From positions 1 through 64,000 of the IMG/VR virus record IMGVR_UViG_3300023174_000048: 64,000 nt of DNA; one strand, 5' to 3'. How positions within the stretch are numbered: position 1 is the first letter of the stretch; each line of letters opens with the position of its first letter. Positions 6,970-50,854 of the stretch are shown one piece after another. Source of the stretch: a virus. Its lineage: Duplodnaviria; Caudoviricetes. The notes beneath the pieces are model-generated. The model searched no databases and had not been told where the DNA came from. It saw nothing but the letters and a program-made list of their open reading frames with translations. The position numbers were made by a program, and so were the translations under genes.

Positions 6970-7638
6970 ATGCTAGACGCAATAATAATAAGTGACACTC
7001 ATTTAGGAAGTGATGTTTGTGAAAGCAAACAATTATATGCTTTTCTAGAACTAGTATTTTCTAAAACAAATAGACTTATTATTAATGGGGACTTTTTTGA
7101 TAATCTTGATTTTCGCAGACTAAAGAAGAATCATTGGAAGATACTGTCTTTATTGAGACGAATGAGTAAATATGTAGAGATTATTTGGATTAGGGGCAAC
7201 CATGATGGTGATGCTGAAACTATCTCTCATTTAATTGGTATAGATTTTAAGAACGAATACGTTTTTTCTAGTGGAAATAAAAACTTTTTATGCTTGCATG
7301 GCGATCAGTTTGATGATTTTATCTACAAATATCCTAATACCACAAAGATGGCAGATTTTTTCTATAGAACTATTCAAAGATTTGACAAAAGATTTCTGCC
7401 ACAATTTATCAAGCAGCGATCTAAAATATATCTTAGATGTAATGAGCATATGATGCAAAAGTCAAGGGAATATGCTATAAATAAAATTATTGATTGTGTT
7501 TGTTTAGGACATACCCATTATCCAATCATTGACAAAGACCATGTTGTATGGTATGCTAATAGTGGATGCTGGACAGAGAAAAATTGTAATTATTTAGCAA
7601 TTAAAGATGGTCAAATAACTTTAGAAACTTTTGTATGA
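6970..7638 (+). CDS. calcineurin-like metallophosphoesterase (LpxH-like)
   Basis: SDTHLG, NGDFFD, RGNHD, HGDQFD, GHTH motifs. Confidence 0.85.
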   Translation: MLDAIIISDTHLGSDVCESKQLYAFLELVFSKTNRLIINGDFFDNLDFRRLKKNHWKILSLLRRMSKYVEIIWIRGNHDGDAETISHLIGIDFKNEYVFSSGNKNFLCLHGDQFDDFIYKYPNTTKMADFFYRTIQRFDKRFLPQFIKQRSKIYLRCNEHMMQKSREYAINKIIDCVCLGHTHYPIIDKDHVVWYANSGCWTEKNCNYLAIKDGQITLETFV

Positions 7639-7677
7639 AGAATTCCTAAAGGTAGTACGAAAGTAAAAAATTAATAC

Positions 7678-8193
7678 TTATTTATCACTTTTTTTAAAAT
7701 TATCCTTAGCCCATAATGGTTGTAAATTAGTATAATGAAAACATTCTTTTTGTTTAGAGGGATTGGATAAGTCAAAAGATGAACATGGGCGAATATGGTC
7801 TATATGCCATCCATAATAACCATAATTATCCCAACTCATACCATCTGCAAATTTGCTTTCAATATATACTCTTAAAAATTCTGGAGTGCATCCTACTAAA
7901 TCAAAAGTTTTACCATACTTACATTTACCTTGAATTGCCAGCAATTGTCTTCTTCGTAAATTACAAGATAATTTATACGTTGGATCTATTTGTTTTCTAA
8001 TTTTACGACATTTATTATTAGATTTAACTTTTCTTTTAATTATTTTTTCTCTATTATTGAGATAATATTCTTTATCTACCTGTTTTTCACAAATCATACA
8101 TCTTCCTCTAACTCCAAATTTTCCTCTTTTTTCTAAATAAAATTCAGAAATATATTTTTCTATTTTACATCGAGTACAAACTTTAGTTTCCAT
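7678..8193 (-). CDS. HNH endonuclease (Zn-ribbon + HNH), paralog A
   Basis: CTRC..CMIC N-terminus; WHIDHIRPCSSFDL...CFHYTNLQPLWAKDN C-terminus. Confidence 0.9.
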   Translation of the reverse strand: METKVCTRCKIEKYISEFYLEKRGKFGVRGRCMICEKQVDKEYYLNNREKIIKRKVKSNNKCRKIRKQIDPTYKLSCNLRRRQLLAIQGKCKYGKTFDLVGCTPEFLRVYIESKFADGMSWDNYGYYGWHIDHIRPCSSFDLSNPSKQKECFHYTNLQPLWAKDNFKKSDK

Positions 8194-8208
8194 ATATCAC
8201 CATAAAAA

Positions 8209-8325
8209 CAGAAAGCCCAAATGCTGTCAAATTGCAGTTGACAAACACTCAGGCTTCTGGTATAATGTATTGTACGATCAGCAAGAATATCTGCAATATA
8301 CTCTTACCGTTATAAAATACACCAA
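8209..8325 (-). ncRNA. candidate HNH-associated kissing-loop RNA, copy A
   Basis: Hairpin loops ATTGCAG (8291-8297) and CTGCAAT (8231-8237) read on - strand are complementary; conserved in 3 copies. Confidence 0.75.
8238..8266 (+). promoter_or_regulatory. consensus sigma70 promoter inside element A
   Basis: TTGACA-17-TATAAT. Confidence 0.85.
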
Positions 8326-8328
8326 ATT

Positions 8329-8961
8329 ATGAAAAATTGCGTTACATTAATCGGTGATTGCCATGGCAAATATAAAAGATACCATGAAATCATTCGTGAA
8401 AAAGATCGTCATGAATACACTATTCAACTTGGTGATTTTGGCTTTGACTATACGACATTAAAGAATGTTGATCCGAAAAATCATGTATTTATTGGTGGGA
8501 ATCATGACCAATATGATACTATAAACGATGTTCCAAATTACCTTGGTGATTATGGTTATGTGAATAATTTTAATGGTATTGACTTCTTTTTCTTTCGTGG
8601 TGCTTATAGTATTGACCGACAATATAGAACAATAGGTATTGATTGGTGGGAGCAGGAGCAATTAAAGATAGAAGATTTTATGAAGGCTAGAGAACTCTAT
8701 AGACAAATCAAGCCAGATGTTGTGTTGACGCATGATTGTCCTCAGAGTCTTTATTCTTATCTTCTTCCTCCAGATGCTAAGGTATATGAGAATATTACTA
8801 GTTGGGCTTTAGAAGAACTATTTAATATTCATCAGCCTAAGTTCTGGCGATTTGGTCATTTTCATCAGAGTTGGAGAAAAGTTATTAATGGTACAGATTT
8901 TAGGTGCTTGAACGAGTTGGAAACAGAAATTTTAACCAAGGGTGATGTATACGGCTATTGA
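8329..8961 (+). CDS. calcineurin-like metallophosphoesterase
   Basis: GDCHG, GDFG, GGNHD, THDCP, GHFH motifs. Confidence 0.85.
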   Translation: MKNCVTLIGDCHGKYKRYHEIIREKDRHEYTIQLGDFGFDYTTLKNVDPKNHVFIGGNHDQYDTINDVPNYLGDYGYVNNFNGIDFFFFRGAYSIDRQYRTIGIDWWEQEQLKIEDFMKARELYRQIKPDVVLTHDCPQSLYSYLLPPDAKVYENITSWALEELFNIHQPKFWRFGHFHQSWRKVINGTDFRCLNELETEILTKGDVYGY

Positions 8962-8986
8962 CAAAGGTTGAAATGTCTGATATAAT
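8958..8986 (+). promoter_or_regulatory. consensus sigma70 promoter
   Basis: TTGACA-17-TATAAT. Confidence 0.8.
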
Positions 8987-9061
8987 TAAAATGTTGATGC
9001 CACAAGGTTGGGATCGCGGGTAGTCCCATAATCAACCATCCGTAAAGTTTCGGCAGGGTTT

Positions 9062-9691
9062 CTATAAGATTGAAACGCTGCTTTTATTTCCTTTAGATAA
9101 ATTATCTTTAGCCCATAATGGTTGTAAATTAGTATAATGGAAACAAATTTTTTGTTGATCTATATTTGTTAAATCAAAACTAGAACATGGTATTATATGA
9201 TCTATATGCCAACCATATAATCCATAATTTTTCCAACTCATACCTTCTCTAAATTGTTTTTCCAAATATTTTTTGAGTTCCTCTATAGAGCATCCTAATA
9301 ATTCCAAGGTTTTTTTACTTTTATAGCCATTATTAATAGCAGAACGAATTCTTCTACTTATATTATCTCTTACTTTATAAGATTTATTCAGTAATCTTTG
9401 TTTGCGGTTGTATTCTTTGATATATTGTTTTCTTTTTTCTTTGTTAATTGGATTATCATCATATTCTTTTTTCCTTAATAATAGTCTTTCCTTATTCCTA
9501 CTGTAGTACGAAGGTAAATTATGGTTTTTTACTCTAGGTTTGAAATAGTATTTTTTTCTTTTCTGTATTTTATTTTTATAAGATAAACACTCTTTACATC
9601 CAGATGTTCTTCCACATAGCATACGACTATCTAAATAATATTCATCTAATTCTTTATCTTTTTTACATAATGTACATATTTTTGTAATCAT
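9062..9691 (-). CDS. HNH endonuclease (Zn-ribbon + HNH), paralog B
   Basis: CTLC..CKEC; WHIDHIIPCSSFDL..CFHYTNLQPLWAKDN; GAGGA SD before ATG 9691 (ORF track start 9745 runs through the hairpin). Confidence 0.9.
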   Translation of the reverse strand: MITKICTLCKKDKELDEYYLDSRMLCGRTSGCKECLSYKNKIQKRKKYYFKPRVKNHNLPSYYSRNKERLLLRKKEYDDNPINKEKRKQYIKEYNRKQRLLNKSYKVRDNISRRIRSAINNGYKSKKTLELLGCSIEELKKYLEKQFREGMSWKNYGLYGWHIDHIIPCSSFDLTNIDQQKICFHYTNLQPLWAKDNLSKGNKSSVSIL

Positions 9692-9705
9692 AGATTCCTC
9701 AAACA

Positions 9706-9819
9706 CAGAAAGCCCAAATGTTGTCAAGTTGCAGTTGACAAACACTCAGGCTTCTGGTATAATGAATTGTACGGGGTTCAGAAATGTCTGCAACACATCT
9801 CTATAATACAATACACCAA
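9706..9819 (-). ncRNA. candidate HNH-associated kissing-loop RNA, copy B
   Basis: - strand loops GTTGCAG (9788-9794) and CTGCAAC (9728-9734) are complementary. Confidence 0.75.
9735..9763 (+). promoter_or_regulatory. consensus sigma70 promoter inside element B
   Basis: TTGACA-17-TATAAT. Confidence 0.85.
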
Positions 9820-9841
9820 ATCAATACAAAAATAGATCATT

Positions 9842-10093
9842 ATGACATTCACAGAATTCCTTAAAAAAGTTGATGATACTTTTATTAGTCACCAAGCGGC
9901 TAGATCTAAATCAACAGATAATCCTGTGTCTGCATCTAATCAATTGCGATATGGTCAAACAATAATGAATGTTTTACACGATGTTTGGCATACAAAATAT
10001 CTTGAAATTAGCGACTCCGATATGGACTGTTTTTATACTAATCGTAATGTTGCTATGCTTTTAAATAAATTAGAGAAAGAATGGGTTTACTAA
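9842..10093 (+). CDS. hypothetical protein
   Basis: first ORF after element B promoter. Confidence 0.7.
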   Translation: MTFTEFLKKVDDTFISHQAARSKSTDNPVSASNQLRYGQTIMNVLHDVWHTKYLEISDSDMDCFYTNRNVAMLLNKLEKEWVY

Positions 10094-10407
10094 TGAACTT
10101 TGAACAAGCAAAAGAATTGTCTTTTCTAGTCCCGTGGAAAATTGCTGAATGTTTTAGTGGGCCACAATGTTGGTGCAGAAGAATTGTGCCAGTTGAGCCT
10201 ATTGTTTGGTATCATCCAGATTTTCCAGAGATTAAAAATGAAATTGATATTGTTGATGATGGAGCATTAGATCAACAAACCGCCGAATATATTGTGAAAC
10301 TTCATAATGAACACCATGAAAGAGTAAAACAAAGTTGTAGGGATGCTACGAAAGAGATTATGGATAGTCTTGTGGCTCTAAAGCGTTACAAAAATTATCT
10401 GAATTAG
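10093..10407 (+). CDS. hypothetical protein
   Basis: TAATG overlap. Confidence 0.7.
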   Translation: MNFEQAKELSFLVPWKIAECFSGPQCWCRRIVPVEPIVWYHPDFPEIKNEIDIVDDGALDQQTAEYIVKLHNEHHERVKQSCRDATKEIMDSLVALKRYKNYLN

Positions 10408-10426
10408 ATCAAGAACTAGGTTTCCA

Positions 10427-10609
10427 ATGAACCAAACTCAAAAAGACAAAATACTTGAAGTTATCAAGTTATGTAATCAAAAAATCAAAAAACAAAAAGA
10501 TCATGAATCTTCTGCCGGATATGGAGAAGATTATACTGATGGAAGAATTGTCGGCGGTGCATCGTTAGCCCGACGAATATTAGAGATATTGAAAGGTTTT
10601 GAACTTTAA
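10427..10609 (+). CDS. hypothetical protein
   Basis: packed + strand ORF. Confidence 0.6.
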   Translation: MNQTQKDKILEVIKLCNQKIKKQKDHESSAGYGEDYTDGRIVGGASLARRILEILKGFEL

Positions 10610-11138
10610 AATGAAACTTAAAGATATAGTACCATACTGTTTACAAATTAAAAATGGTCGAGACGAACTAAAATACTATTGGATTATTAATGGAATAAAT
10701 TATGCTTTTGATTCTTTACAATTAGACATTGTTAACTTTATTAATTTGATCGCCAATCTTAATGGATATGATTATTTAATGCTCAACTTAAACAATGAGA
10801 TAACTATTTTTGACAAATTCATTCTGGTTCATAAAACTCAAAACGAAACAACAAACAATGAATCAAGAGTATTTCACCGACAAAATTATTATATAGCCAA
10901 TGGTCATAGCACATCAGCAGAATATTATACAATAGGGTTATTTCATACAACCACCAACTGCATGATGGTTGATCTGAGAACCACCATATTTAAAGACCTT
11001 ATCTCTCCACCTGTCCGATCTAAACCAGCCGATTTGACTCTGGATGAACGAGTTGATGGTCTTATTGATGAACTAATGAAAGACAGCAAATCTATGGCTA
11101 TTAAGAAACTGAAGAGGATGTTAAATGAGCGACTCTGA
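10599..11138 (+). CDS. hypothetical protein
   Basis: 179 aa ORF in array. Confidence 0.7.
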   Translation: MNFKMKLKDIVPYCLQIKNGRDELKYYWIINGINYAFDSLQLDIVNFINLIANLNGYDYLMLNLNNEITIFDKFILVHKTQNETTNNESRVFHRQNYYIANGHSTSAEYYTIGLFHTTTNCMMVDLRTTIFKDLISPPVRSKPADLTLDERVDGLIDELMKDSKSMAIKKLKRMLNERL

Positions 11139-11400
11139 AAAAGTATATTGTCTAACCAACTTCTTAACCCAAGATGAATTATATAGATTCCAAAGAGAAA
11201 TAGAAGATGATATAAAATACTCATATGGATTTAAAGAACAGTTTAACCAGTATGATATAAAGTTACACATATCAAAAAATGACGCTATCCAATATTATGA
11301 TTTGTTTACTGAATTATTTTTCTTGGTTGAAACTAAAGTTGGAGAAGCAATCTCATGGAAAAGATTTAAAGATGTTTTTAAGGGAGAGGTAATCAAATGA
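11125..11400 (+). CDS. hypothetical protein
   Basis: GAGGA SD. Confidence 0.7.
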   Translation: MSDSEKVYCLTNFLTQDELYRFQREIEDDIKYSYGFKEQFNQYDIKLHISKNDAIQYYDLFTELFFLVETKVGEAISWKRFKDVFKGEVIK

Positions 11401-11843
11401 GAGACTATAAAAGGATTGACGAATTACGAAAAGAATACTCAAATCTTAATGATTATATATCATCTCTTTGTGAAGTTATAAAACAATTAGAAAATAAAAT
11501 TAAACACCACGAAAAAGGAACAGCAACAGTTTATGTCCCCAATCAATCATCGTACAAAGACTTAGAACTTAAACTAAAAAACTTTGAAACTAACAAGCAA
11601 AAAGATATTGATGAGTTATTGGAGACTAGAATCATTCCATTAAATAAAGAAGTCCAAGAACTAAGAGCCGATAATTACAATCTTAAATCTAAAAATAGGA
11701 ATTCGGAGAATCATATAATGATGCTTAATAGACTGATTGATTTTGCTGTGGGATATATTAGTGCGACTCAGCCTCATACTGACAAACATCCTATGGAAGT
11801 TAAAAAATGGTTATTTGAGGGATTTGAAGGATTAAAAGAATGA
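11397..11843 (+). CDS. coiled-coil hypothetical protein
   Basis: GAGG SD; heptad-like charged sequence. Confidence 0.7.
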   Translation: MRDYKRIDELRKEYSNLNDYISSLCEVIKQLENKIKHHEKGTATVYVPNQSSYKDLELKLKNFETNKQKDIDELLETRIIPLNKEVQELRADNYNLKSKNRNSENHIMMLNRLIDFAVGYISATQPHTDKHPMEVKKWLFEGFEGLKE

Positions 11844-12796
11844 ATCCTCATAGAAAGTATAGAAGTTATATGCAAGCATCAGACCTTTGGCTAATAAATG
11901 CACCAATTATTTTGGTGGTGGTATTATTTACCATATTTTATCTTAATCCCATTCATAAAAAGAATACGGATAAAGTACCCCAAAACAAACCAATTGACCG
12001 ACAAACTATAAGTACCGATAATATTACTGGTAATGTTGAAAGTATTCATGGTTGGGGACGAACAGAAATTGTTCCCATGAAAAGCATAGAGTTAGAATAT
12101 TTTGAATATTGCGAACAATGGGTTATGTATGGTGATGTTGTTCAGCCAGTTGGCCGCAAAGGTTATTTCATGCCGGTAATGAGAGGTAATCTTAATCTTA
12201 ATGTTAAAGACCTTACCCAAACATGGGTGGCACATGAGAAATACGAAAGTGGCCCAATAGAAAATCCAGAAACTTTTGAGGATTTTAGAGTAGCAGATAT
12301 TAGAGTAAAAGAAGGAAAAATTATTGATATAAACTACTCTCATTATAGGTTGTTATCAGATAATACTTGGAGTATAATAGCATCATGGAAAGCAATAGTT
12401 AATCCAGACGTTCCTGACCCTGTTCTAGAAAATATTCAAAAAGAATCAGAACATCCAGTAATAGTTTGTTCATCTTGTAAAGGCAAGGGAGAAAAACTTA
12501 CCGACGTTAATAAATTAATGATGGATGCCTCACTGGCTATATTTTTTAATCATCATCTGATGGTTGACAAATGCGAAAAGTGTGTTAAACTACCTAACGG
12601 CGACGGTTATGACTACTGCGACGTTGTAAATGAGCGTTACCAAACTTTACTTAAAGAATATGGTGTTGTTGGGCCGAAAATGGATATGGCAGCGTGTGAA
12701 CAGTGTATGGGCGAGGGAACTTTTAGTAGCAAAGATTTAACTACCGGAAAGTGGCTGACTCAGGAGGAATATGATGAGAAAAGCAAGAAAAATTAA
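11840..12796 (+). CDS. membrane-anchored protein with DnaJ-type CxxCxGxG zinc motifs
   Basis: hydrophobic segment aa ~15-35; CSSCKGKG and CEQCMGEG in C-terminal part. Confidence 0.6.
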   Translation: MNPHRKYRSYMQASDLWLINAPIILVVVLFTIFYLNPIHKKNTDKVPQNKPIDRQTISTDNITGNVESIHGWGRTEIVPMKSIELEYFEYCEQWVMYGDVVQPVGRKGYFMPVMRGNLNLNVKDLTQTWVAHEKYESGPIENPETFEDFRVADIRVKEGKIIDINYSHYRLLSDNTWSIIASWKAIVNPDVPDPVLENIQKESEHPVIVCSSCKGKGEKLTDVNKLMMDASLAIFFNHHLMVDKCEKCVKLPNGDGYDYCDVVNERYQTLLKEYGVVGPKMDMAACEQCMGEGTFSSKDLTTGKWLTQEEYDEKSKKN

Positions 12797-13061
12797 CCGA
12801 CAAAAAATAAAAGAACAAATAATTTCTGTGAGTCCTTGGGATTTGTCTGGAAGTCCAGAAGATATTTGTAAAAATTTAAGAACAACTCAAGATGCTTTTT
12901 TACAAGATCGAAATGATGTTATTGAATCATATTGGTCTTGGGATTCTGGTATTTATGCTAGTGATACCGGAGCATTTGAATTGGTTATTACTAGACTAGA
13001 AAATGATAAAGAGTATAATGCTAGAGTTAAAAAGCAGGAAAACAAGACGAAATATAACTAA
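12771..13061 (+). CDS. hypothetical protein
   Basis: GAGGA SD. Confidence 0.6.
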   Translation: MMRKARKINRQKIKEQIISVSPWDLSGSPEDICKNLRTTQDAFLQDRNDVIESYWSWDSGIYASDTGAFELVITRLENDKEYNARVKKQENKTKYN

Positions 13062-13088
13062 AAGAATATCTTAGATTAAAGGAAAAGT

Positions 13089-13394
13089 TTGGAGGTTTAT
13101 CTTAAAATGTATAAAATAATATCGGATTTAGGTAAAAAAAGTGGATGGAACGCTAGAGTATTTCAGTGGGAAGATTCTGATGAAGTAAGGCGTATGCTTC
13201 CAAATCCACAGGATCATTCAAAATGGTACTATGTAGATTTTTACATGACGAATGATTATACTAACGGCACTCGTATAGAAGGAACAAAAGAAGATCTACA
13301 AAGAATAGTAGACATGTTAAATGTTGCTATTAGCCACCAAGAAAATACAGACGAAATTGCTAAAGATGTCGAGAGAATATTCAATGAACCATGA
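13089..13394 (+). CDS. hypothetical protein
   Basis: ORF in array; true start probably ATG 13107 (GGAGG SD). Confidence 0.65.
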   Translation: MEVYLKMYKIISDLGKKSGWNARVFQWEDSDEVRRMLPNPQDHSKWYYVDFYMTNDYTNGTRIEGTKEDLQRIVDMLNVAISHQENTDEIAKDVERIFNEP

Positions 13395-13611
13395 TGATAT
13401 TTGGACAAAATCTCTCCAATTAAAAAAAGCAAGAAGAGAACATATGTCAAAATGTATGGACAGTTATGATTCTAATATATACGATCCAGCATTAAAACAA
13501 TTACAAGAAGAGTGTGAAAAATTGGGACACAAATTTGTTTTTCGAAGTTTTACTGTTGGTCATTACGCATATTACTCTTGTGACTATTGTGGTTTTGAAA
13601 AAATAGAATAA
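13384..13611 (+). CDS. hypothetical protein with C-terminal Cys/His motif
   Basis: CEKLGH...CDYC. Confidence 0.6.
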   Translation: MNHDDIWTKSLQLKKARREHMSKCMDSYDSNIYDPALKQLQEECEKLGHKFVFRSFTVGHYAYYSCDYCGFEKIE

Positions 13612-13623
13612 AGGAGAATAAAC

Positions 13624-13866
13624 ATGAATAGTTTTTGGAAAGGTTTCTGTAACTTGTTTGGTTGTTTTAGTCCTAAAACGCTAGACGAAAGCATGGAAGA
13701 TTTATATTCACGAATGGGATGGGGACAATATCACAATCCTTGTGAATGTTACAATACTGCTGTTGATATTAACAGAGCATTAGAAGAGCAAACATTTTCT
13801 AATATGATTAAAGATCCATCAAGACCAAGAATTAGTCAGTGTTATAATAGACAAAGATACAAATGA
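13624..13866 (+). CDS. hypothetical protein
   Basis: AAGGAG SD. Confidence 0.65.
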   Translation: MNSFWKGFCNLFGCFSPKTLDESMEDLYSRMGWGQYHNPCECYNTAVDINRALEEQTFSNMIKDPSRPRISQCYNRQRYK

Positions 13867-14168
13867 AAACCTATAAGAAAAAAACCGTTAAAGTTGTTGA
13901 CCAAATTTTATGCGATTGTTGCGGACAATCATGTACCAAAGAAGTTCCTACTATCAAACCATCGTTCGATCATGAATATGCAAAAATAGAAGCAACATGG
14001 GGATACTTTTCCAATCAAGATGGTACTCAATATGATATTCAAATTTGTGAAACTTGTTTCACTGAAGTATTAGATTTTATCAAAGACAAACGACGAAAAG
14101 TTTTAGGTCCATTTAATTTTCCACATGAAAAAGATCCATTAGAAGGGAAGAGGTATTTTCCATTATGA
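13863..14168 (+). CDS. hypothetical Zn-binding phage protein
   Basis: CDCC...ATWGY...ICETC. Confidence 0.7.
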   Translation: MKTYKKKTVKVVDQILCDCCGQSCTKEVPTIKPSFDHEYAKIEATWGYFSNQDGTQYDIQICETCFTEVLDFIKDKRRKVLGPFNFPHEKDPLEGKRYFPL

Positions 14169-14392
14169 AAGCCACGTTTAATTTTGATCTGGATATTCCA
14201 GAAGATAAGGTTCAGTATGATATAATGAACCAAGCACATAAAATGCAAAGAATGTTATGGCAATTTAGTCAACAATTACGAGAGTGGGAAAAATATGGTC
14301 ATCAGTTTAATAGTGCTGATAATGCTGTATATAGTATAAGAGAAGAATTTTATAAGACGCTCAACAACTATGAAGTGAATATTGATCTATAG
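14165..14392 (+). CDS. hypothetical phage protein
   Basis: ATGA overlap; MKATFNFDL start. Confidence 0.7.
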   Translation: MKATFNFDLDIPEDKVQYDIMNQAHKMQRMLWQFSQQLREWEKYGHQFNSADNAVYSIREEFYKTLNNYEVNIDL

Positions 14393-15082
14393 CCAATTTA
14401 ATTTATCTCCTTTGCTTAGATTGTCTTTTGCCCATAAAGGTTGTAGATTAGAATAATGGAAACATTTTTTCTGTTCTTCTGGATTGTTTAAATCAAAACT
14501 AGAACAAGGTATTATATGATCTATATGCCAACCATATAATCCATAATTTTTCCAACTCATACCGTTTGTAAATTTATTTTCTAAATATTTTTTAAGTTCT
14601 TCCACAGAACATCCTATTAAATTAAATGATCTATCTGATTTTATTTTTCCTCGAATAGCATGATTAATTCTACGTCTTAAATTTTCTGCTAATCTAAATT
14701 GTGTGTTTATTTTTCTTTTTTTGTTGTTTCTTTGATTTATTAGATTTTTATTATTTTTATTATATTCTTTTTTACGAGACAGTATTTTATATTTATGTTT
14801 TAGATAAGTTTTTTTGTCTTTTTCTCTATAGTATTCATTATGTTCGAGTCTTCGTTGTTTATTCTTTATACTAATTATATCTGCGTTTTGTTTATTATAT
14901 TTTCTTTTATTTTCGCATAATTTTTGTTTGTGTAATGAATAATATTTTGCATCATATATCTTCCGATAGTCTTTAATACATTGTTTACATTGTGATCTCA
15001 ATCCATCTTTTCCTCCTTTTTGTTTATTAAAGTTAGAAATTTCTTTTTCTTGTTTGCATTTTGTACATATTTTATTTTTCAT
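14387..15082 (-). CDS. HNH endonuclease (Zn-ribbon + HNH), paralog C
   Basis: CTKC..CKQC; WHIDHIIPCSSFDL..CFHYSNLQPLWAKDN; start set at MKNKICTKC by alignment with paralogs. Confidence 0.9.
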   Translation of the reverse strand: MKNKICTKCKQEKEISNFNKQKGGKDGLRSQCKQCIKDYRKIYDAKYYSLHKQKLCENKRKYNKQNADIISIKNKQRRLEHNEYYREKDKKTYLKHKYKILSRKKEYNKNNKNLINQRNNKKRKINTQFRLAENLRRRINHAIRGKIKSDRSFNLIGCSVEELKKYLENKFTNGMSWKNYGLYGWHIDHIIPCSSFDLNNPEEQKKCFHYSNLQPLWAKDNLSKGDKLNWL

Positions 15083-15096
15083 GTAACGCCTAAAAA

Positions 15097-15212
15097 CAGA
15101 AAGCCCAAATGCTGTCAAATTGCGGTTGACAAACATTCAGGCTTCTGGTATAATACATTGTACGATTATTAGAAATGTCCGCAATACATCTCTATAATTT
15201 ATAATACACCAA
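15097..15212 (-). ncRNA. candidate HNH-associated kissing-loop RNA, copy C
   Basis: - strand loops ATTGCGG (15179-15185) and CCGCAAT (15119-15125) are complementary. Confidence 0.75.
15126..15154 (+). promoter_or_regulatory. consensus sigma70 promoter inside element C
   Basis: TTGACA-17-TATAAT. Confidence 0.85.
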
Positions 15213-27527: not shown

Positions 27528-27607
27528 GCTCCTGTGCCGGTGGTTCCCGGCAGTTACTCTTATAAGGTAATCCGAAAGGGGACTTGGTTCGATTCCAAGC
27601 AGGAGTA
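27528..27607 (+). tRNA. tRNA-Ile (anticodon UAU), atypical, CCA not encoded
   Basis: acceptor GCTCCTG/CAGGAGT, D stem CCGG/CCGG, anticodon stem TTACT/GGTAA with loop CT-TAT-AA, T arm CTTGG-TTCGATT-CCAAG; enlarged variable region. Confidence 0.7.
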
Positions 27608-28937: not shown

Positions 28938-29286
28938 GGGCTAGTAAAGGTATCGACAGGTAAAATAGATTTAGACGGCATCGACTGGTTGAATAACAGG
29001 CCAGTATAAAAGTTATTCAAAAAATGTTAATTGGCGAAGTAAATCTCGCTCTCGCTGCCTAATTAGTTAGGTACGAGTGGGGCTATATGGGCCTTATTAC
29101 CCAATCATGTTGACTCAGATAATTCTGATAAGGAAGTCTAACCCGAAAATATAGACAATGATCGTAACCGATCTGATGAAGATAATTTCTTCTAGGTTTG
29201 TCTAGTGTCCAAATTACAATAGACTAACGATGTAGAAGTTTATGTTGATGTTTATTCTGGACAGGGGTTCGACTCCCCTCTAGTCC
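28938..29286 (+). ncRNA. ssrA: tmRNA (transfer-messenger RNA)
   Basis: 5' GGGCTAG pairs with 3' CTAGTCC-A (G3:U70 wobble), T arm AGGGG-TTCGACT-CCCCT, tag ORF 29033-29062 GEVNLALAA* after TTAATT. Confidence 0.92.
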
Positions 29287-29295
29287 AATTATATT

Positions 29296-33499: not shown

Positions 33500-33596
33500 T
33501 TAAAACCAAAAGGTGATCGGCTACAATAGTTTAAATGGTTGAGGCACACAAAGATTCAACCTCAAATCATTGATTGTTGTAGTCGGTCACTTATAT

Positions 33597-33671
33597 GGGA
33601 GCGTAGTCCAATTGGCAGCAGACAAAGGACTTAAAATCCTTCCAGTGTGGGTTCGAGTCCCACCGCTCCTA
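33597..33671 (+). tRNA. tRNA-Leu (anticodon UAA), short variable loop, CCA not encoded
   Basis: GGGAGCG/CGCTCCT acceptor, AAGGA-CTTAAAA-TCCTT, GTGGG-TTCGAGT-CCCAC. Confidence 0.9.
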
Positions 33672-33711
33672 TTTTTAGAACGATAATTATCTTTAAGAAT
33701 AAGGAAATAAA

Positions 33712-41985: not shown

Positions 41986-42889
41986 AGGTATTCGACCATC
42001 AACTTTTGATGAAATCATTGGACAGGATAATGTTAAGGAGCGTCTGCGAGTGTCTGTGATGGGTTGTAAAAACACAGGCACGGTGATGCCTCACGTTTTA
42101 ATAGACGGCCCTCCTGGCCTTGGTAAGACCACCATAGCGAGTGCCATAGCAAACGAGTTGGGGGTGAACCTTTATACCACCAATGCTGCAAATATACGAA
42201 GCATAAAAAACATTATTCCATATATTATGGGGATTGAACCAAGATCAGTTTTGTTCATTGATGAAATCCATAGATTGCCTAAAATTGTAGAAGAATTTCT
42301 ATATCCAATCATGGAAGATTTTGTACTCAATATCACTGTAAAAAATGATGAGGATAAAGACGTTCCAGAAACTATTGATCTTCCAATGTTTACTGTTGTT
42401 GGTGCTACAACCAGTGGTGGAAGTTTAAGTCAACCATTTTATGATCGCTTTTGCATTAAAGAACATCTATCTTTTTACAATACAGATGATCTAGCTAAAC
42501 TAGCAAGGTTGAATTCGTCTAAATTAGGAGTAGTCATAGAGGACTCAGACCTCTTAGAGATTGCACGACGAAGCAAAGGTACTCCAAGAATTCTAAATGC
42601 TAGATTGCAATGGTATAAAAATTATATGTCTTGTAATCCAGATAAAACTATTTCTGTGGATGAGATATTTAATGTTCAGGGTATTGATAATAATGGTCTT
42701 GATGTTTATGATAGACTATATATTGATATTTTGAAAAAGAGTAAGGGATCTCCACTTGGACTGAAAGCAATATCTTCAATGACAGGAATTGCTATTGAAA
42801 CTATTGAGAATAGTATTGAGCCATTTCTAGTTAGACGAGGATATGTAATCAGAACTCAAAAGGGGAGAGTTTTAGGATCTCAACCATAA
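41978..42889 (+). CDS. ruvB: Holliday junction branch migration helicase RuvB
   Basis: RPSTFDEIIGQ, GPPGLGKTT, FIDEIHRL, GATT, SKGTPRI, IEPFLVRRG..RTQKGR. Confidence 0.93.
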   Translation: MAKGIRPSTFDEIIGQDNVKERLRVSVMGCKNTGTVMPHVLIDGPPGLGKTTIASAIANELGVNLYTTNAANIRSIKNIIPYIMGIEPRSVLFIDEIHRLPKIVEEFLYPIMEDFVLNITVKNDEDKDVPETIDLPMFTVVGATTSGGSLSQPFYDRFCIKEHLSFYNTDDLAKLARLNSSKLGVVIEDSDLLEIARRSKGTPRILNARLQWYKNYMSCNPDKTISVDEIFNVQGIDNNGLDVYDRLYIDILKKSKGSPLGLKAISSMTGIAIETIENSIEPFLVRRGYVIRTQKGRVLGSQP

Positions 42890-42927
42890 TAATTTGATAT
42901 CAATAAATATATAATGCTAAGATACTA

Positions 42928-42952
42928 AAGGGGCCTTTTTGGCCCCTTTTTT
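42928..42952 (+). terminator. intrinsic terminator
   Basis: AAGGGGCC-ttttt-GGCCCC followed by T run. Confidence 0.85.
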
Positions 42953-44308: not shown

Positions 44309-47300
44309 ATGGTTGACAATATCAAAATTATTGGATTAAATCCTAATCAAAGTCCAACGCCAACAAAAAGTGTTACTCCAACACCTACAAAAACACCTAC
44401 AAACACTCCAACAAATACTATAACTCCGACAAAAAGTCAAACACCAACAGCAACCCCGACAGTAACATCAACAGTAACTCCCACCAAAACAGCCACAAGA
44501 ACACCTACAAAATCTTTATGTGTATGGAATGGATATGGCCAAGTATGGTTAGCTAACTGTAATAATGAGAAAATTAATGTTCGTTGGATTAGAACTTCTA
44601 ATAATAACAACTGGACTGGAACATTTAATTATGGCTCAAACAGCATAACATCAACAATAACATATAATGCAAATTTATTAAATTTAAAAAATACAAGTTG
44701 CAAAGATTTATGGACAGTAACTTTTAATTTTAGTTGTGTTCCTTATGGTCAATCTTTAGCATATGATTTACCTCATTGTTCATGTAATAGTCCTGGAATT
44801 ATTGTAATTAGTAGTTCAGCATCTAACTGTATGTGTACTACTCCAACACCAACTCCAACAATTACAGCAACAAATACTCAAACACCAACCCCCACACCAA
44901 CAAATACTCAAACAAAAACTCCCACACCAAGCAATACGGTTACGCCAACTCCCACACCAACAACAACCCAAACAAAAACTCCAACACCAAGTAATACTGT
45001 TACGCCAACTCCCACAATTACTGTAACACGAACAAGCGGTCTGACAAAAACGCCAACCCCAACACCAACAGTAACTCCAACTACAACACAGTGCTATCCA
45101 GATGTTCCTACGGGATTATTAGCAGAATGTGGTTCATGTGAGTCTGGCTCATTAATTAATTTAAGTTGGTTCCCTCCAACATCATCTTGTTTAAATGGAT
45201 TTGACGTACAAATGTTGGTAAATAATACTATTGTATATAATACATATGTAGTCGCGGGGCAAAATAGTATTGGAATACCATTATTTTCAGACAATAGAAC
45301 TTACACATTTAGAATACGATCTTCTTCTGGCTTTGGAGGTAATAATTTTAGTCAATGGATAGAATTCCCTGGATCCTTTACTAATAATATCTGTTGCCCA
45401 ACTAGTACTCCAACTCCAACACCAACACCAACTAAAAATCTAAAGTGTAATAATTCATGGCCAAATATCCCAAGTGCGGGAGTATCGCCGGGATCTATTA
45501 TTGGATTAACATCTGGAGCTATATGGGCAGCTGTTTCTTACTGGAAATATCCATTTAGATTTATAAAAGATAGGAATGTAACAAACGACCAGAGTACTAA
45601 TGGTATAAATTTTATTATTGGAGAACAAATATTAGTAAGAGTAGCACCGTTTTATGATGTCCTTCTTGGTATTCCAGGAAATTATATAATAAATAATATT
45701 GTATATAATGAAGATTATTCAGGAATGTTTACTGCTGACACTCTATATGTCTCATGTTTAGATACTGATTTAACTTTTACAGATACTTATGTATTAAATT
45801 TTATTGATGAATCACAGCCAAATTATACTGATACCCAATATGGCAATCTGGTTGGAAATCTCTGGCCTGTTGATGTAAAATACTTCAACGAATCAGTATC
45901 ACCATCGGCTCGTAAATTTGTGGCAGCTTTTGACATTGATACCAATTATGAGGTAGCAAATCCATCACAAGGCTGGGGTGAGATTTGGCCGTCTGGTGCT
46001 GTTGGCGACATAGCAAATAGTCTATGCTCTTTACCAATACCCAAACAAAACATTATTCAAACTTCTAGACCAACTCCAGAATCACAAAATATATTTTTAA
46101 ATTATGTACAAAATCAAATCGTAAACACATTGCAATGGGGTACATTTGATGAAATAAAAAGTAATTCTCCAAATGCTAAATTTGTTCTTATTGTGGATGA
46201 TAGCGGATCTATGACATATGAGTTGGTCCAAACTGCTCTTGAATCTTTAAAAAGTATTATACTTGCAGCTGGCCTTGATTGTGTAATATTAACACTATGT
46301 AAAAACGAAAGATGGCTACAGTGGTCTGCTTACGTTTTAAATAATATAACAACTATTCATGACCCTAATTTTAAAGAAGATATGTGTAACTGTTCATTAC
46401 GCTTTGAAGATAGTGATGGATGTTCAGTTATGGTTGAATTTACCAATCCATATGATGGATCTATTATACGCCAAGATGGATCTGCCGCAAGTCCACTACA
46501 ATATTGGTCTATACATCCTATGTTATCTTCTGGAAATTGTCCAGCACCTTTAGATAGGAGAGATCCATTTGATGCTACTGGTATTACAATATTAAGTTAT
46601 AGGATATCCAATCTTATTTCTCCTGTTCCTGGCGGATCTTCCTCAGATACTGATAATATAAATATTACAGCAAAATTAAAATGTAAAAATGGTACATTTA
46701 TGCTTGATGTAGTATCTGATTATGCTTTTTGGGAAACTTGTACTGGTGGAACCAGTAGTAGTGATCATGCTTATTTATATTGGGATAATATAGAAATACC
46801 AGTTAATGGTCTTGGCTATCCAGATGGTGTTGTTAATTTGGGAGATCCAACTAGAGCTGAGACATGCTTTAATCAAGATATAGAACTCAAACCATATGAT
46901 AATATTAATATTAAATTTACTTATATTGGAACAGATATTATTCCAAATAATCCATGTGAACCATATAGAAATTCTGCAAATTTTAATAGTTCTGCTGACT
47001 GGGGTGGTCAAAATGGTAATATTACTACAGTAGGAACTAACGGTAGCCCTAGTTATTATGGTACATATGATCAAAGTGGTAATGTGAATGAATGGATAGA
47101 TGGAATAGGAGAAAAATTAGTTCGTGGAGGAGGCTATCCAGGATTATTAAGTAATCAAAACTCTGCAAATCGTGGACAACGTAGACAAACGTTTAATTCT
47201 TCGCAGGGCTCTTTAGGTTTTAGAGTAGCGTCTAGCTCACCAGGACCATCATTAGTAAAAATAGGAAATCCGGGTAATATTAATGATTCAACAGGATACG

Positions 47301-50300
47301 GGGCGGTTGCTGTTGATTACTATATCGGAAAATATGAAATTACTAATAGTGATTATATAGAATTTTTAAATGCAGTTGCTAAACAAGATACTCATTATTT
47401 ATATAACAGTCAACTTGAAACCAATATTCGAAGCGGAATAGTGCGTCAAGGAATTGATAGCAATTATTTTTATAGCGCTAAAGATAATATGTGTAATAAA
47501 CCAATTAATTTTGTGAGTTGGTTCAATGCTGCGAGATATTGCAACTGGCTGCATAATGGTAAACCAACTGGACCTCAAAATAGTAACACAACAGAAGATG
47601 GAGCATACTCTCTTTCTTCGATAGATTCTGATAATCCTATTATATATAAAAATAATAATGCTAAGTATTGGATACCAACAGAAAATGAATGGTATAAGGC
47701 AGCGTACTATAGTCCAGTAAAAAGAGGGGTTAACTCGCCAGGATATTATACCTACTCTACACAGAGCGACACAGAACCATCTTCCATATCCGCCAATAGC
47801 GTAGGAAATGGAAATGCAAGAATTAGTGATTATACATGTTCTGTTCCTACTATCACAGCCACTCCAACCCCCACATCAACAGTAACTCCAACACCAACGC
47901 AAACATTACCAGATAATTTAATGCGAATAAATAATCTATCATTCTGTGAAGACAATAGTGAAATTGGCGCGGCTATTATAGTTACTTGGAATATAATAAA
48001 TAGTGATATAAATCTTAATCAAATCTATTGTTTGGCATATCAAAAATACCCTGGAGATGATTGGACATATTATAAGTCATTAAATGGCAATATAAAATAT
48101 TATACAATAAATGGTAGTGAGATTAAAATAACTCAAAATTTTAATATGTTCGGCGGACCAGATATAATACCATATGGCATAAGATTGGTTTTGGTACCAA
48201 ATGAATTAGCTTATAATTTTGTTTTTTCATTAAACGAGACAGATACTACAGGATGTCTTGTGTCTGAAGCTTTTAATAGTTCACTATTGTGTTTTACTCC
48301 AACCCCCACATCAACAGTAACTCCAACGCCAGGATTAACTAGAACACCTACACCAACTCCAACTCCAACAAGTATGTCTAAAAGCTGTTATTCTGTTAAA
48401 GATGTTTGTTGTTGTATATATAGTACTCAAGAAGATAATAATATATTAAACGGTCTTCTTACATGGACACCCATAGATTCTACATGCAAGTTTGATCGTT
48501 ATCAGATTGCTCAATATGATTCTATTACTAATATTTGGCGAATGTTATTTAGCTTGGATCGTTCGTATAATAGTTGTCCAATACAGATATCTACTAATAT
48601 GTTATATTCTAAATTTAGAATAAAACCAATAAATATTACTTATGGTCTAGTAGGCGATTGGGTAGAATCTAAAGACATAAGTAGCACAGGACCAATATGC
48701 AATGGAGATTCATGTGACAATAAGGTTTCTGTTTATAACGTATCTGCACAATGTAACTGTGGAGTCATAGGAACAGAGTCATCAAATAATCAGTCTAGTA
48801 TATTAGATAATTCAATTTTAGTAAATTTTAAATGTAATGATAATGATATTACAGCATTCACTATAGACTATATAGCATCATCATCACAAAATTATTATCA
48901 ACCAGAAACAAAATTTTCTTTTCCTATAGAATCAAAACTACTAACTGACACTATAAGTTCTAATGTTTTAGAATTAGAATATAATAATCAATTTAAAAAA
49001 AGTATAATTACTAGTTACTCATACATTACCATTAATAATATTAAATATAATATTATATCTTCTAATATTTTTATTGATAAAGTTGTAATTAATATATCAC
49101 AAAGAGTTAACATATCTGCTGGATCAATAGTTTTTGTAGAACAATGGGCAACAGCAGGATTAATCGATCAATCTATGACTATAGAAAATTTAACTAGAAA
49201 TTCTGATAATTCTATAAGCTTTAAAGCGCGCCCTAATACCAGTAATCAGTTTATTATTTTTGATCCTTGCTTACCAACTATTAGAATTGGAGCCCTTGGT
49301 ATAGACAGAAGTATCAATGGATTCCAACAACAGCTTGATAGTCTAAAAACTATAGCAAATACAACATTATGTACTAATGACATGGCAGTAGCTGCTCCGA
49401 TAGACTTAACAATTCAATGCGATAAGATAAACAATCAATCAACAGTATTATTTAGTTGGACTCCTCCAACTGACATTAACGGAATAACAACATATCAATT
49501 GGATGCTTATAATCCAAGTTTTGGCTGGTATAGTGATACAGCTGGGTATATGGATCAGATTGTATGGAAGAATAGATATCCTATAAGAGATCCATACGAC
49601 AATACTTTTGAAATTAGTGTTATAGGAAGAAATAATATTCCCAATAAAATGGCCTTATTATCTTCTGAGTTTGGTACTAATTTAAATCTTAATTATTCAT
49701 TTAGAATAAGGTCATTAAATGAATATACTGGAGAATATAGTAGTTGGAGCAATGTGATAGCGGGTATAAATCCATTTAAATGTTGGGATCATGGAATACA
49801 CATCTCAGACATAATGGTTGGAGACGAAGGTTTTTCTGATAAGTCTAGACAATTTACTATAACTTTTGATCAAAATATAGGCTGTTGGAAAAACTTCCAA
49901 TATAAAACATATAATCCTAACACTGTCAGTTCTGCACAATGGATTGATGTAAAAACACAAACATCAGCAACAACAGATTGTTCACAATTCATTACTAATG
50001 TAATTATACCAGATGTAGATTCATCAATTTGCTTTAAGTTCTATTCTGTAGACTCTGGCGGGAATACAGTCGAAACTAGTAATGAATATTGCTTAAGTGT
50101 TCCTCCTGTTATTCCTCCAATTATTGATCCTCCTCCTCCGGTATGTCCAGATACAGTATTGAGTAGTATAAGGGTGATGTATAGTAATACTAACGGTAAA
50201 GGTCCGTGTGGAGGTGGGCATAATTGTAATAGAGCACAATTTATTTTATCTATTAATGATATTTTTATAGGAAATGTTAATCTTAATAATGCTGGTGGAG

Positions 50301-50854
50301 GCACTGACCCTGGTACACCAACAAATCCTAGTGATTTTCCAAGTTTAATTCCAATAGGATCACAAGATAGAGGAAATAAATTTAATATACCATTTGATAG
50401 TTTAGGTAATACGATGATTACTCCTATATTATTAAATAACGGATCATTGGGATATAAAATTAATTTGATTTGTGCAAATAATCAAAATATAATGATGCCA
50501 CTATGCGATTTAACTCAAGACACAGATTGGATTTATAGTGGAAGTGGTCCTAAATGTAATCCTTTATTAAATAATAATAATTTATGGATGTCTGACGGAT
50601 CAACATTTAGCACTTTCAAGTGTTGTGCTGCTCATTCAGATAGTTATACGTATGTTGGCGGATCTAATGGTTGTCATACTGGAATAGCATGGATTGAACT
50701 ATTAGACATTGATAATAATATAGTGTTAAGTTGCTGTGTTCCTGTTGATACAGTATCATACATATTAACAGATAATGCTAAGTGCTTAGATACACAAAAT
50801 AGTTTACAAAATAATACTTTTGGTCTAGAATTTTTAACTATTACAAATAATTAG
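44309..50854 (+). CDS. giant Thr/Pro-repeat multidomain protein (vWA-like, FGE-sulfatase-like, FN3-like domains); probable virion/surface protein
   Basis: 2181 aa ORF; TPTP blocks, IVDDSGSM, GTYDQSGNVNEW, EWYKAAYY, YSFRIRS..YSSWSN. Confidence 0.75.
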   Translation: MVDNIKIIGLNPNQSPTPTKSVTPTPTKTPTNTPTNTITPTKSQTPTATPTVTSTVTPTKTATRTPTKSLCVWNGYGQVWLANCNNEKINVRWIRTSNNNNWTGTFNYGSNSITSTITYNANLLNLKNTSCKDLWTVTFNFSCVPYGQSLAYDLPHCSCNSPGIIVISSSASNCMCTTPTPTPTITATNTQTPTPTPTNTQTKTPTPSNTVTPTPTPTTTQTKTPTPSNTVTPTPTITVTRTSGLTKTPTPTPTVTPTTTQCYPDVPTGLLAECGSCESGSLINLSWFPPTSSCLNGFDVQMLVNNTIVYNTYVVAGQNSIGIPLFSDNRTYTFRIRSSSGFGGNNFSQWIEFPGSFTNNICCPTSTPTPTPTPTKNLKCNNSWPNIPSAGVSPGSIIGLTSGAIWAAVSYWKYPFRFIKDRNVTNDQSTNGINFIIGEQILVRVAPFYDVLLGIPGNYIINNIVYNEDYSGMFTADTLYVSCLDTDLTFTDTYVLNFIDESQPNYTDTQYGNLVGNLWPVDVKYFNESVSPSARKFVAAFDIDTNYEVANPSQGWGEIWPSGAVGDIANSLCSLPIPKQNIIQTSRPTPESQNIFLNYVQNQIVNTLQWGTFDEIKSNSPNAKFVLIVDDSGSMTYELVQTALESLKSIILAAGLDCVILTLCKNERWLQWSAYVLNNITTIHDPNFKEDMCNCSLRFEDSDGCSVMVEFTNPYDGSIIRQDGSAASPLQYWSIHPMLSSGNCPAPLDRRDPFDATGITILSYRISNLISPVPGGSSSDTDNINITAKLKCKNGTFMLDVVSDYAFWETCTGGTSSSDHAYLYWDNIEIPVNGLGYPDGVVNLGDPTRAETCFNQDIELKPYDNINIKFTYIGTDIIPNNPCEPYRNSANFNSSADWGGQNGNITTVGTNGSPSYYGTYDQSGNVNEWIDGIGEKLVRGGGYPGLLSNQNSANRGQRRQTFNSSQGSLGFRVASSSPGPSLVKIGNPGNINDSTGYGAVAVDYYIGKYEITNSDYIEFLNAVAKQDTHYLYNSQLETNIRSGIVRQGIDSNYFYSAKDNMCNKPINFVSWFNAARYCNWLHNGKPTGPQNSNTTEDGAYSLSSIDSDNPIIYKNNNAKYWIPTENEWYKAAYYSPVKRGVNSPGYYTYSTQSDTEPSSISANSVGNGNARISDYTCSVPTITATPTPTSTVTPTPTQTLPDNLMRINNLSFCEDNSEIGAAIIVTWNIINSDINLNQIYCLAYQKYPGDDWTYYKSLNGNIKYYTINGSEIKITQNFNMFGGPDIIPYGIRLVLVPNELAYNFVFSLNETDTTGCLVSEAFNSSLLCFTPTPTSTVTPTPGLTRTPTPTPTPTSMSKSCYSVKDVCCCIYSTQEDNNILNGLLTWTPIDSTCKFDRYQIAQYDSITNIWRMLFSLDRSYNSCPIQISTNMLYSKFRIKPINITYGLVGDWVESKDISSTGPICNGDSCDNKVSVYNVSAQCNCGVIGTESSNNQSSILDNSILVNFKCNDNDITAFTIDYIASSSQNYYQPETKFSFPIESKLLTDTISSNVLELEYNNQFKKSIITSYSYITINNIKYNIISSNIFIDKVVINISQRVNISAGSIVFVEQWATAGLIDQSMTIENLTRNSDNSISFKARPNTSNQFIIFDPCLPTIRIGALGIDRSINGFQQQLDSLKTIANTTLCTNDMAVAAPIDLTIQCDKINNQSTVLFSWTPPTDINGITTYQLDAYNPSFGWYSDTAGYMDQIVWKNRYPIRDPYDNTFEISVIGRNNIPNKMALLSSEFGTNLNLNYSFRIRSLNEYTGEYSSWSNVIAGINPFKCWDHGIHISDIMVGDEGFSDKSRQFTITFDQNIGCWKNFQYKTYNPNTVSSAQWIDVKTQTSATTDCSQFITNVIIPDVDSSICFKFYSVDSGGNTVETSNEYCLSVPPVIPPIIDPPPPVCPDTVLSSIRVMYSNTNGKGPCGGGHNCNRAQFILSINDIFIGNVNLNNAGGGTDPGTPTNPSDFPSLIPIGSQDRGNKFNIPFDSLGNTMITPILLNNGSLGYKINLICANNQNIMMPLCDLTQDTDWIYSGSGPKCNPLLNNNNLWMSDGSTFSTFKCCAAHSDSYTYVGGSNGCHTGIAWIELLDIDNNIVLSCCVPVDTVSYILTDNAKCLDTQNSLQNNTFGLEFLTITNN
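44346..45090 (+). repeat. Thr/Pro low-complexity repeat blocks
   Basis: ACT/ACA-CCA codon repeats, duplicated TQTKTPTPSNTVTPTP units around 44870-45020. Confidence 0.85.
47861..48327 (+). repeat. 32-nt exact direct repeat (47861-47892 and 48296-48327)
   Basis: ACTCCAACCCCCACATCAACAGTAACTCCAAC occurs twice. Confidence 0.8.

Follow-up and report, generated by a model that had tools for sequence, protein, structure and literature searches.

Homing endonucleases must stay quiet if their phage hosts are to tolerate them, and the controls known to date are single hairpins and the choice of promoter in a few model cases of the T4 family. In the present study we analysed a stretch of 64,000 nucleotides (nt) from a virus of the Caudoviricetes (IMG/VR record IMGVR_UViG_3300023174_000048, positions 1 to 64,000 of that record; hereafter the window), in which three paralogous genes for HNH-type nucleases on the minus strand are each preceded by a leader with two hairpins, hairpin 1 (H1) and hairpin 2 (H2), whose loops are exact reverse complements of each other. 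Comparison of these leaders with their relatives in other genomes strongly supports a real family of structured RNAs with an unusually clear tertiary covariation signal. The genes and leaders are located as follows.

7678 to 8193, minus strand: HNH-type (His-Me finger) nuclease A, 171 amino acids (aa), with an N-terminal CxxC zinc-finger-like motif; PHROG 1035 'endonuclease VII' and PHROG 2255 'HNH endonuclease'
8194 to 8326, minus strand: leader copy A, from sequence, fold and covariance model R1 (144 bits)
9062 to 9691, minus strand: HNH-type nuclease B, 209 aa, from PHROG and paralogy
9692 to 9820, minus strand: leader copy B, from sequence, fold and covariance model R1 (149 bits)
14387 to 15082, minus strand: HNH-type nuclease C, 231 aa, from PHROG and paralogy
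15083 to 15212, minus strand: leader copy C, from sequence, fold and covariance model R1 (160 bits)

Nucleases B and C are 49-54% identical to protein A, and all three share a C-terminal H-N-H-type motif and an N-terminal CxxC pair. The nearest genes of cultured phages are annotated as putative HNH endonucleases, and Pfam recognised no domains, hence no RuvC, in these proteins of 171-231 aa.

Architecture and folding of the leader

Read in the sense of the nuclease gene (HNH sense), the leader consists of H1, a linker of ~27-30 nt, the 21-bp H2, a U-tract, a Shine-Dalgarno sequence and the AUG. H1 has 8 bp in the window, including one G-U pair, and 8-9 bp across the family, where the loops measure 6-7 nt; in H2 of the window copies four of the 21 bp are G-U pairs, and two single-base bulges interrupt the stem. 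The end of H2 lies 14-15 nt from the start codon in the window, with a Shine-Dalgarno-like GGTG or GAGG between them, so that the spacing of ~10-12 nt given in the original prediction, which was made from the window sequence without database searches, has to be corrected. The Shine-Dalgarno sequence itself comes after H2 and the U-tract, and the centroid folds leave it unpaired. The hairpins of the three copies occupy the following positions.

8283 to 8305, minus strand: H1 of copy A, loop ATTGCAG at 8291-8297
8209 to 8259, minus strand: H2 of copy A, loop CTGCAAT at 8231-8237
9780 to 9802, minus strand: H1 of copy B, loop GTTGCAG at 9788-9794
9706 to 9756, minus strand: H2 of copy B, loop CTGCAAC at 9728-9734
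15171 to 15193, minus strand: H1 of copy C, loop ATTGCGG at 15179-15185
15097 to 15147, minus strand: H2 of copy C, loop CCGCAAT at 15119-15125

On the same strand each leader begins with a terminal box, which in copy A is TTTGGTGTA (8318-8326) and in copies B and C lies at 9812-9820 and 15205-15212. The linker between H1 and H2 of copy A contains CGTACAAT, its U-tract is at 8204-8208 and its Shine-Dalgarno sequence GGTGAT at 8196-8201. In copy B the tail after H2 reads TGTTTGA and the Shine-Dalgarno sequence is GAGGAA (9695-9700), and in copy C the tail reads TTTTTAG.

In the window copies H2 alone folds with -22.9 kcal/mol on the HNH-sense strand against -12.6 to -16.1 kcal/mol on the plus strand, H1 alone with -3.8 to -6.8 against 0 to -1.6 kcal/mol, and the whole element with -37 to -44 against -22 to -27 kcal/mol, the z-scores of the minus strand being -3.7 to -5.5. 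The HNH-sense strand is the more stable because every non-Watson-Crick pair is a G-U pair there, and the same preference is seen in 32/32 members of the family described below (mean -41.8 vs -25.8 kcal/mol). The loop-loop helix of the kissing complex contributes ~ -7 to -9 kcal/mol and exceeds the stability of H1 itself. Direct reading of the window copies indicates that the complementarity ends exactly at the loop edges, and therefore no longer alternative helix is available.

Loop coincidences of 6 nt are as common in the window as in shuffled sequence, and only the three 7-nt cases stand out. A hairpin at 42851-42949 (plus strand), upstream of a strong GGGGCC...GGCCCC terminator, shows a 6-nt loop complementarity (AAAAGG) which is probably due to chance, because matches of this length are equally frequent after shuffling.

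Covariation and distribution of the family

The window copies are paralogues and alone supply two independent double substitutions only; decisive support for the fold therefore comes from comparison. Relatives were gathered by pattern scans of IMG/VR and JGI metagenomes, by HNH-based retrieval of loci, by nhmmer and with the covariance model R1, giving 32 distinct leader copies in viral and freshwater metagenome contigs. The DNA search patterns constrained H2 only and excluded the nuclease gene, and thus the H1 loops provide an independent test of the pairing.

The loops of H1 and H2 are exact reverse complements of each other in 32/32 copies, which represent nine H1 loop haplotypes (ATTGCAG, GTTGCAG, ATTGCGG, GGTCAG, GGACGG, GGACAG, GGGTAG, GAGCAG and GTAGGAG), with the loop-to-loop distance held at 50-56 nt. 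The chance of a random 6-7-mer match in the ~80 nt upstream is 0.5-2% per haplotype. In the alignment of all 32 sequences, which was fitted to the model and so favours the structure, the nested helices are paired in 96.3% of the cells and 19 pairs have changed on both sides, a number reached in 0/500 shuffles, and slid controls on this alignment are 35-46% paired. An independent MAFFT alignment of 13 copies gives the same picture, the loop helix being 100% paired. Furthermore, H2 of the canonical copies differs at ~10 positions from that of the GGTCAG subfamily, yet keeps its 21 pairs and both bulges, and a U-rich tail with 4-6 T among the next 9 nt follows H2 in 32/32 copies.

These data bear out the core of the original prediction, namely that the HNH-sense strand folds as a structured RNA of two hairpins with covarying kissing loops and that the G-U asymmetry favours folding of this strand; the covariation it sought in a larger alignment is found in the 32-copy set, and the hairpin and loop sequences of the three copies, when read again on the minus strand, are as it described them. 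Its count of two independent double substitutions stands, with the qualification that the paralogues yield just these two on their own. An additional outer stem (P1, TGGTGTA/TATACCA) had also been suggested but finds no support and is not counted as part of the fold, since the sequence is invariant in the canonical copies and mismatched in L292, L005 and the GGTCAG subfamily. The single compensatory case, in the second copy of contig L310, is outweighed by the mismatches in divergent copies. The 3' strand of P1 is the -10 box of a promoter on the plus strand, and its 5' strand is the terminus of the mobile cassette described below, with a possible HNH-sense -10 box.

The element had been put forward as a candidate new structured RNA, and in a scan of the window at gathering score no Rfam model matched the leaders; at E<=10 copies A and C met only noise-level microRNA and snoRNA hairpins. 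No description of the leader family was found in Rfam or in the literature searched. In GenBank phages, blastn with copy A gave no match, the canonical pattern was without a match in 185,579 bacterial and archaeal genomes, and the nearest record (G001) holds neither the element nor the surrounding region. The window sequence is present in lake and freshwater metagenomes. Genomes carry from one to three copies, the window having three and each of three complete phage records of 200-238 kb having one. The IMG/VR contig L310 (28 kb) has two copies, at 2683-2821 and 9262-9396, with the unrelated loop pairs GGTCAG and GGGTAG; these two co-resident copies, and the three of the window, which all differ, may have been selected against cross-pairing.

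The link to the nuclease is strict. An intact open reading frame (ORF) of the HNH family starts 14-17 nt past H2 in 30/32 copies and a truncated remnant is found in the other 2. The leader remains up to 94-96% identical where the HNH proteins are only 35-60% identical, and one loop pair occurs with different HNH subtypes, an observation that speaks against both an operator specific to one protein and a dedicated RNA partner. Conversely, only ~11 of the 80 best loci of HNH homologues have the leader, and a crude search for other kissing leaders before these 80 homologues found this family only. No conserved ATG-initiated reading frame that might encode a leader peptide runs through the leader.

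Opposite-strand promoters and cassette insertion

On the plus strand every window leader contains a feature absent from the original prediction, a consensus sigma-70 promoter directed away from the nuclease gene and toward a resident gene.

8238 to 8266, plus strand: consensus sigma-70 promoter TTGACA-17-TATAAT with TG in copy A, predicted to drive the gene at 8329
9735 to 9763, plus strand: consensus sigma-70 promoter in copy B, predicted to drive the gene at 9842
15126 to 15154, plus strand: consensus sigma-70 promoter in copy C, predicted to drive the gene at 15230
8329 to 8961, plus strand: resident metallophosphoesterase gene behind leader A, without Shine-Dalgarno sequence
8958 to 8986, plus strand: native consensus promoter of the gene at 9842, a perfect match without hairpins
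7646 to 8328, strand not assigned: inserted cassette A, HNH A plus leader, 683 bp, from empty sites in HNH-less relatives
9051 to 9822, strand not assigned: inserted cassette B, HNH B plus leader, from the empty site in L398

All three leader promoters match 12/12 consensus positions plus TG, the chance expectation in the window being 0.16 by consensus scan, and the promoter is retained in most relatives. Read on the other strand, its -35 box and spacer form the 5' arm of H2, the -35 box falling at the top of the hairpin; TATACCA is the -10 region, and the promoter points through H1 toward the resident gene, 135 nt of DNA thereby serving both strands. The GGTCAG subfamily retains the RNA fold with a degenerate -10 box on the plus strand. 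None of the three genes behind the leaders (at 8329, 9842 and 15230) has a Shine-Dalgarno sequence, whereas about half of the plus-strand ORFs of the window have one, and in four relatives the ATG comes directly after TACACCAAAA.

The relatives L398, L399 and L401, whose flanks align closely with those of the window, include empty sites for cassettes A and B. In these three the start codon of the phosphoesterase gene shares bases with the stop codon of the gene before it (ATGA), and 7645 is followed at once by the phosphoesterase gene. Cassette A was inserted 11 nt into the phosphoesterase start; the gene begins anew right after the terminal box of the leader and the 11-nt orphaned start, ATGAAGAATTC, remains at 7635-7645. 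Together with ATGAAAAATTG at 8329-8339 this segment forms an 11-nt near-repeat flanking the cassette, perhaps left behind by the insertion or by homology that it used. Cassette B lies in the 5' untranslated region (UTR) of the gene at 9842, downstream of the native promoter at 8958, where it replaces ~41 nt of native UTR seen in L398 and now separates promoter 8958-8986 from its gene; a transcript from this promoter would run antisense through HNH B. The promoter is followed by a structured 5' UTR (to 9050; GTTGAT...ATCAAC enclosing TGGGAT...ATTCCCA), and both are conserved in the HNH-less L398.

The empty sites in these near-identical relatives thus indicate that the leader and the outward promoter belong to a mobile cassette, whose promoter appears to replace the expression signals that the insertion disrupted. 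Presence and absence at the same site, together with an ORF of a homing nuclease family, identify the cassettes at the level of sequence as free-standing homing endonuclease cassettes, for which cleavage and homing are predicted only.

Proposed attenuation of the nuclease and alternative explanations

We propose, with moderate confidence, that the element is a cis-acting kissing-loop attenuator leader RNA, carried by a mobile HNH homing-endonuclease cassette of large uncultured freshwater phages and facing a strong early promoter. With its succession of H2, U-tract, Shine-Dalgarno sequence and start codon, the leader resembles an intrinsic-terminator or attenuator module. In this mechanism H1 and H2 would fold in the HNH-sense RNA and their loops of 6-7 nt would pair fully as a kissing complex, H2 and the U-tract would act as an intrinsic terminator or attenuator that holds nuclease expression low or delayed, and the loop-loop contact would set or lock the state of the terminator hairpin. 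From the other side the early promoter would fire through H1 to a resident gene cut off from its own signals, the cassette replacing what it disrupts, and HNH-sense transcription would meet this strong promoter head-on. We infer from the arrangement that leader RNA is produced, that H2 terminates and that kissing influences expression. Among the functions listed in the original prediction, the limitation of a toxic nuclease fits best; a ribonucleoprotein scaffold is weakened by the finding of the same loop pair with different HNH subtypes, and nothing supports a self-cleaving RNA or a single-stranded DNA end structure.

Promoter-like signals for the HNH-sense transcript are found just before H1 in some lineages, such as TTGACA-16-TATAAT in L259 and TTGATA-18-TATTAT in copy C. 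In the GGTCAG subfamily TATTTA is preceded at a distance of 17-18 nt by a conserved TTGA(A/G)N, and the cassette is likely to carry an HNH-sense promoter here. If these signals are used, the two promoters would face each other with an overlap of ~40 nt, a weak nuclease promoter being subordinate to a consensus early promoter. Hexamers resembling a -10 box occur before H1 only, with no TATAAATA within H2. The TTGACA in the 3' arm of H2 was rejected as part of an internal HNH-sense sigma-70 promoter, because the hexamer at the -10 position (TTTTAT, GTTTGA or TTTTAG) lacks the essential A, and so was the H1 loop as a -35 box (TTGCAG-16-TACAAT), which fails in the other loop haplotypes. In nine contigs of the GGTCAG subfamily (L264, L267, L310, L318, L330, L335, L352, L370 and L396) the conserved region reaches ~30 nt farther upstream of the leader box.

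Several observations weigh against attenuation by H2. Copies A and B lack a canonical HNH-sense promoter, a simple terminator scanner did not call H2, and the U-tract is short in some copies (TGTTTGA, TGTTATA). H2 leaves the Shine-Dalgarno sequence unsequestered and classic translational occlusion is not evident, nor is it obvious what kissing would do to a terminator hairpin that has already folded. A contact within one molecule and a contact between two both fit the geometry, for which we estimate ~36 bp for stacked H1, kiss and H2 and ~27-30 nt for the linker. No RNA run covered the locus well, and four freshwater metatranscriptome assemblies contain element-bearing contigs from relatives, joined to the 5' region of the HNH gene or to the side of the plus-strand gene; these contigs carry no strand or end information, their ends match repeat borders, and DNA carry-over is possible.

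Kissing contacts of this size are familiar from ColE1 RNA I/RNA II, R1 CopA/CopT and phi29 pRNA, where fully paired loop-loop helices of 6-7 nt form between stable hairpins of different molecules, and in phi29 pRNA complementary loops within one RNA covary between relatives. Here both loops are on one leader, and pairing in cis or between molecules are both possible. A kissing contact that bears on a terminator in a two-hairpin leader is known from the guanidine-IV (mepA) riboswitch, in which the kissing loops of two hairpins decide the fate of an intrinsic terminator (PMC11611296). That riboswitch, however, controls guanidine exporters, its loops are conserved for the ligand, and its kissing hairpin and its terminator are distinct and compete (PMC11611296). 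In the present leaders, by contrast, the loops vary freely among nine versions, the terminator-like hairpin is itself one of the kissing pair and no Rfam model matches.

The closest biological parallels lie in the T4 family, whose homing endonuclease genes are restrained by terminators and by hairpins in the leader and have promoters of adjacent genes embedded in them (PMC2988022). The theme of hairpins, terminators and embedded promoters around such genes is already established, and it is the present leader family which is new to Rfam and the literature searched. The leaders of I-TevI/II/III, segB, Aeh1 mobE and seg43(25) likewise have a stable hairpin directly before the ribosome-binding site of the endonuclease, terminators or hairpins which limit expression, and neighbour promoters that travel along (PMC2988022). 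They are, however, single hairpins, mostly sequestering the ribosome-binding site and with a late promoter inside the hairpin, whereas the embedded promoter described here points the opposite way; no second hairpin, loop-loop pairing or conserved sequence family is described for them (PMC2988022), and all three are present here. Sequestration of the I-TevI/mobE type is not seen in our leaders, in which the Shine-Dalgarno sequence lies unpaired beyond H2 and the U-tract. The closest single case is seg43(25) of Aeromonas phage 25, whose ribosome-binding site is described as free and directly preceded by a very stable hairpin (PMC2988022), an arrangement shared by H2 with its -22.9 kcal/mol and its end 14-17 nt before the start.

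Control of the two genes by sense-antisense pairing is, in our judgement, unlikely. The HNH-sense transcript would end at H2 as a small RNA of ~110 nt, or its 5' part would overlap the 5' end of the plus-strand mRNA by ~40 nt including H1, and the H1 loop would have two alternative partners, the H2 loop in cis and, in trans, the loop of identical sequence in the H1 complement (H1') of the plus-strand mRNA, which would couple the expression of resident gene and nuclease or shield one RNA from the other. The plus-strand start site is expected ~7 nt after TATAAT, between H2 and H1, and the plus-strand mRNA therefore carries H1' near its 5' end; besides, a 5' hairpin, a linker and a terminator-like hairpin are a layout typical of small RNAs, and H1 alone is weak (-3.8 to -6.8 kcal/mol). 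The H2 loop necessarily equals the H1' loop, but this identity is a trivial consequence of complementarity and gives no independent support, H1' barely folds on the plus strand (0 to -1.6 kcal/mol), and the GGTCAG subfamily keeps the RNA fold with a degenerate plus-strand -10 box. An equally doubtful variant is an RNA switch within the head-on promoter pair, in which the H2 loop would mimic the loop of the 5' hairpin of the early mRNA, so that the choice between a cis and a trans kiss would sense the early promoter and the nuclease would be released only once early transcription stops. Somewhat less probable again is a processing or stability element, in which H2 would stabilise the 5' end of the nuclease mRNA or be cleaved in the manner of an RNase III site, its recognition being tuned by kissing. 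The length of H2 amounts to about two turns of a helix, the subfamilies share the positions of its bulges, and hairpins of this kind are used by phage early mRNAs, as at the R1.1 sites of T7. RNase E processing of seg and mob transcripts is also documented (PMC2988022), but the U-tract and the need for H1 would be left unexplained.

That the element acts as DNA, either as a PeSL-like recombination module of promoter and hairpin or as inverted operator half-sites for a phage protein or the HNH enzyme, with the RNA fold incidental, seems improbable to us. A consensus promoter does overlap the hairpin, I-TevI represses its own promoter via an operator (PMC2988022), and PeSL modules join a stem-loop to a near-perfect sigma-70 promoter in T4-like phages (PMC4122927). 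PeSLs share with our element a stem-loop and a near-perfect TTGACA-17-TATAAT early promoter before a gene, repetition in the genome and association with insertions. In PeSLs, however, promoter and stem-loop share one strand, on which the stem-loop precedes the promoter and serves as a terminator, a Shine-Dalgarno sequence follows, and many copies stand beside unrelated small genes (PMC4122927, PMC2839356). Here the hairpin contains the -35 box and spacer, is most stable on the opposite strand with its U-tract there and has a covarying partner hairpin, no Shine-Dalgarno sequence follows the promoter in the window copies, and the 1-3 copies per genome, one in each complete genome, are always beside an HNH gene; three of the four defining features of PeSLs thus fail, the near-consensus sigma-70 early promoter being the one that is found. 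Moreover, the asymmetry between G-U and C-A in 32/32 copies indicates that one of the strands folds in single-stranded form, the stems change in sequence yet covary, nine unrelated loops would demand nine co-evolved protein specificities, and the same loop pair is found with different HNH subtypes. Very improbable, finally, is an RNA partner of the nuclease, a scaffold or guide comparable to the HEARO or omega RNA of IscB, to which the strict co-occurrence with an HNH-type gene might point. Those RNAs match Rfam and accompany RuvC-HNH proteins of ~400-500 aa, whereas the proteins found here have 171-231 aa, no Pfam domains and no RuvC, fall into PHROGs for endonuclease VII and HNH, and have leaders without an Rfam hit; in addition, there is no free variable segment for a guide, since the only variable parts pair mutually, and ~69 of the 80 best HNH-homologue loci lack the element.

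Whatever its mode of action, the leader is a conserved and portable RNA module with unusually clean loop-loop evidence, fused on the other strand to a promoter that would repair the damage of insertion, and a compact example of dual coding in which both strands of one 135-nt stretch of DNA are used. It constitutes a candidate new RNA family, whose nine natural loop variants are ready-made pairs of mutant and rescue. If the loop-loop contact indeed controls termination or translation, it would represent a simple programmable RNA part.

The phage itself encodes rIIA, DNA ligase, a transfer-messenger RNA (tmRNA) and tRNAs. Its closest cultured relatives are distant, with rIIA <=36% and HNH <=38% identical, and given this distant kinship we do not claim that it is a T4-type phage. 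The tmRNA lies at 28938-29290 on the plus strand (Rfam 85 bits) with the tag peptide GEVNLALAA, and genes for tRNA-Ile(TAT) and tRNA-Leu(TAA) are found at 27528-27607 and 33596-33672. Two adjacent very large ORFs of 2181 and 1670 aa occupy 44309-50854 and 50865-55877 on the plus strand.

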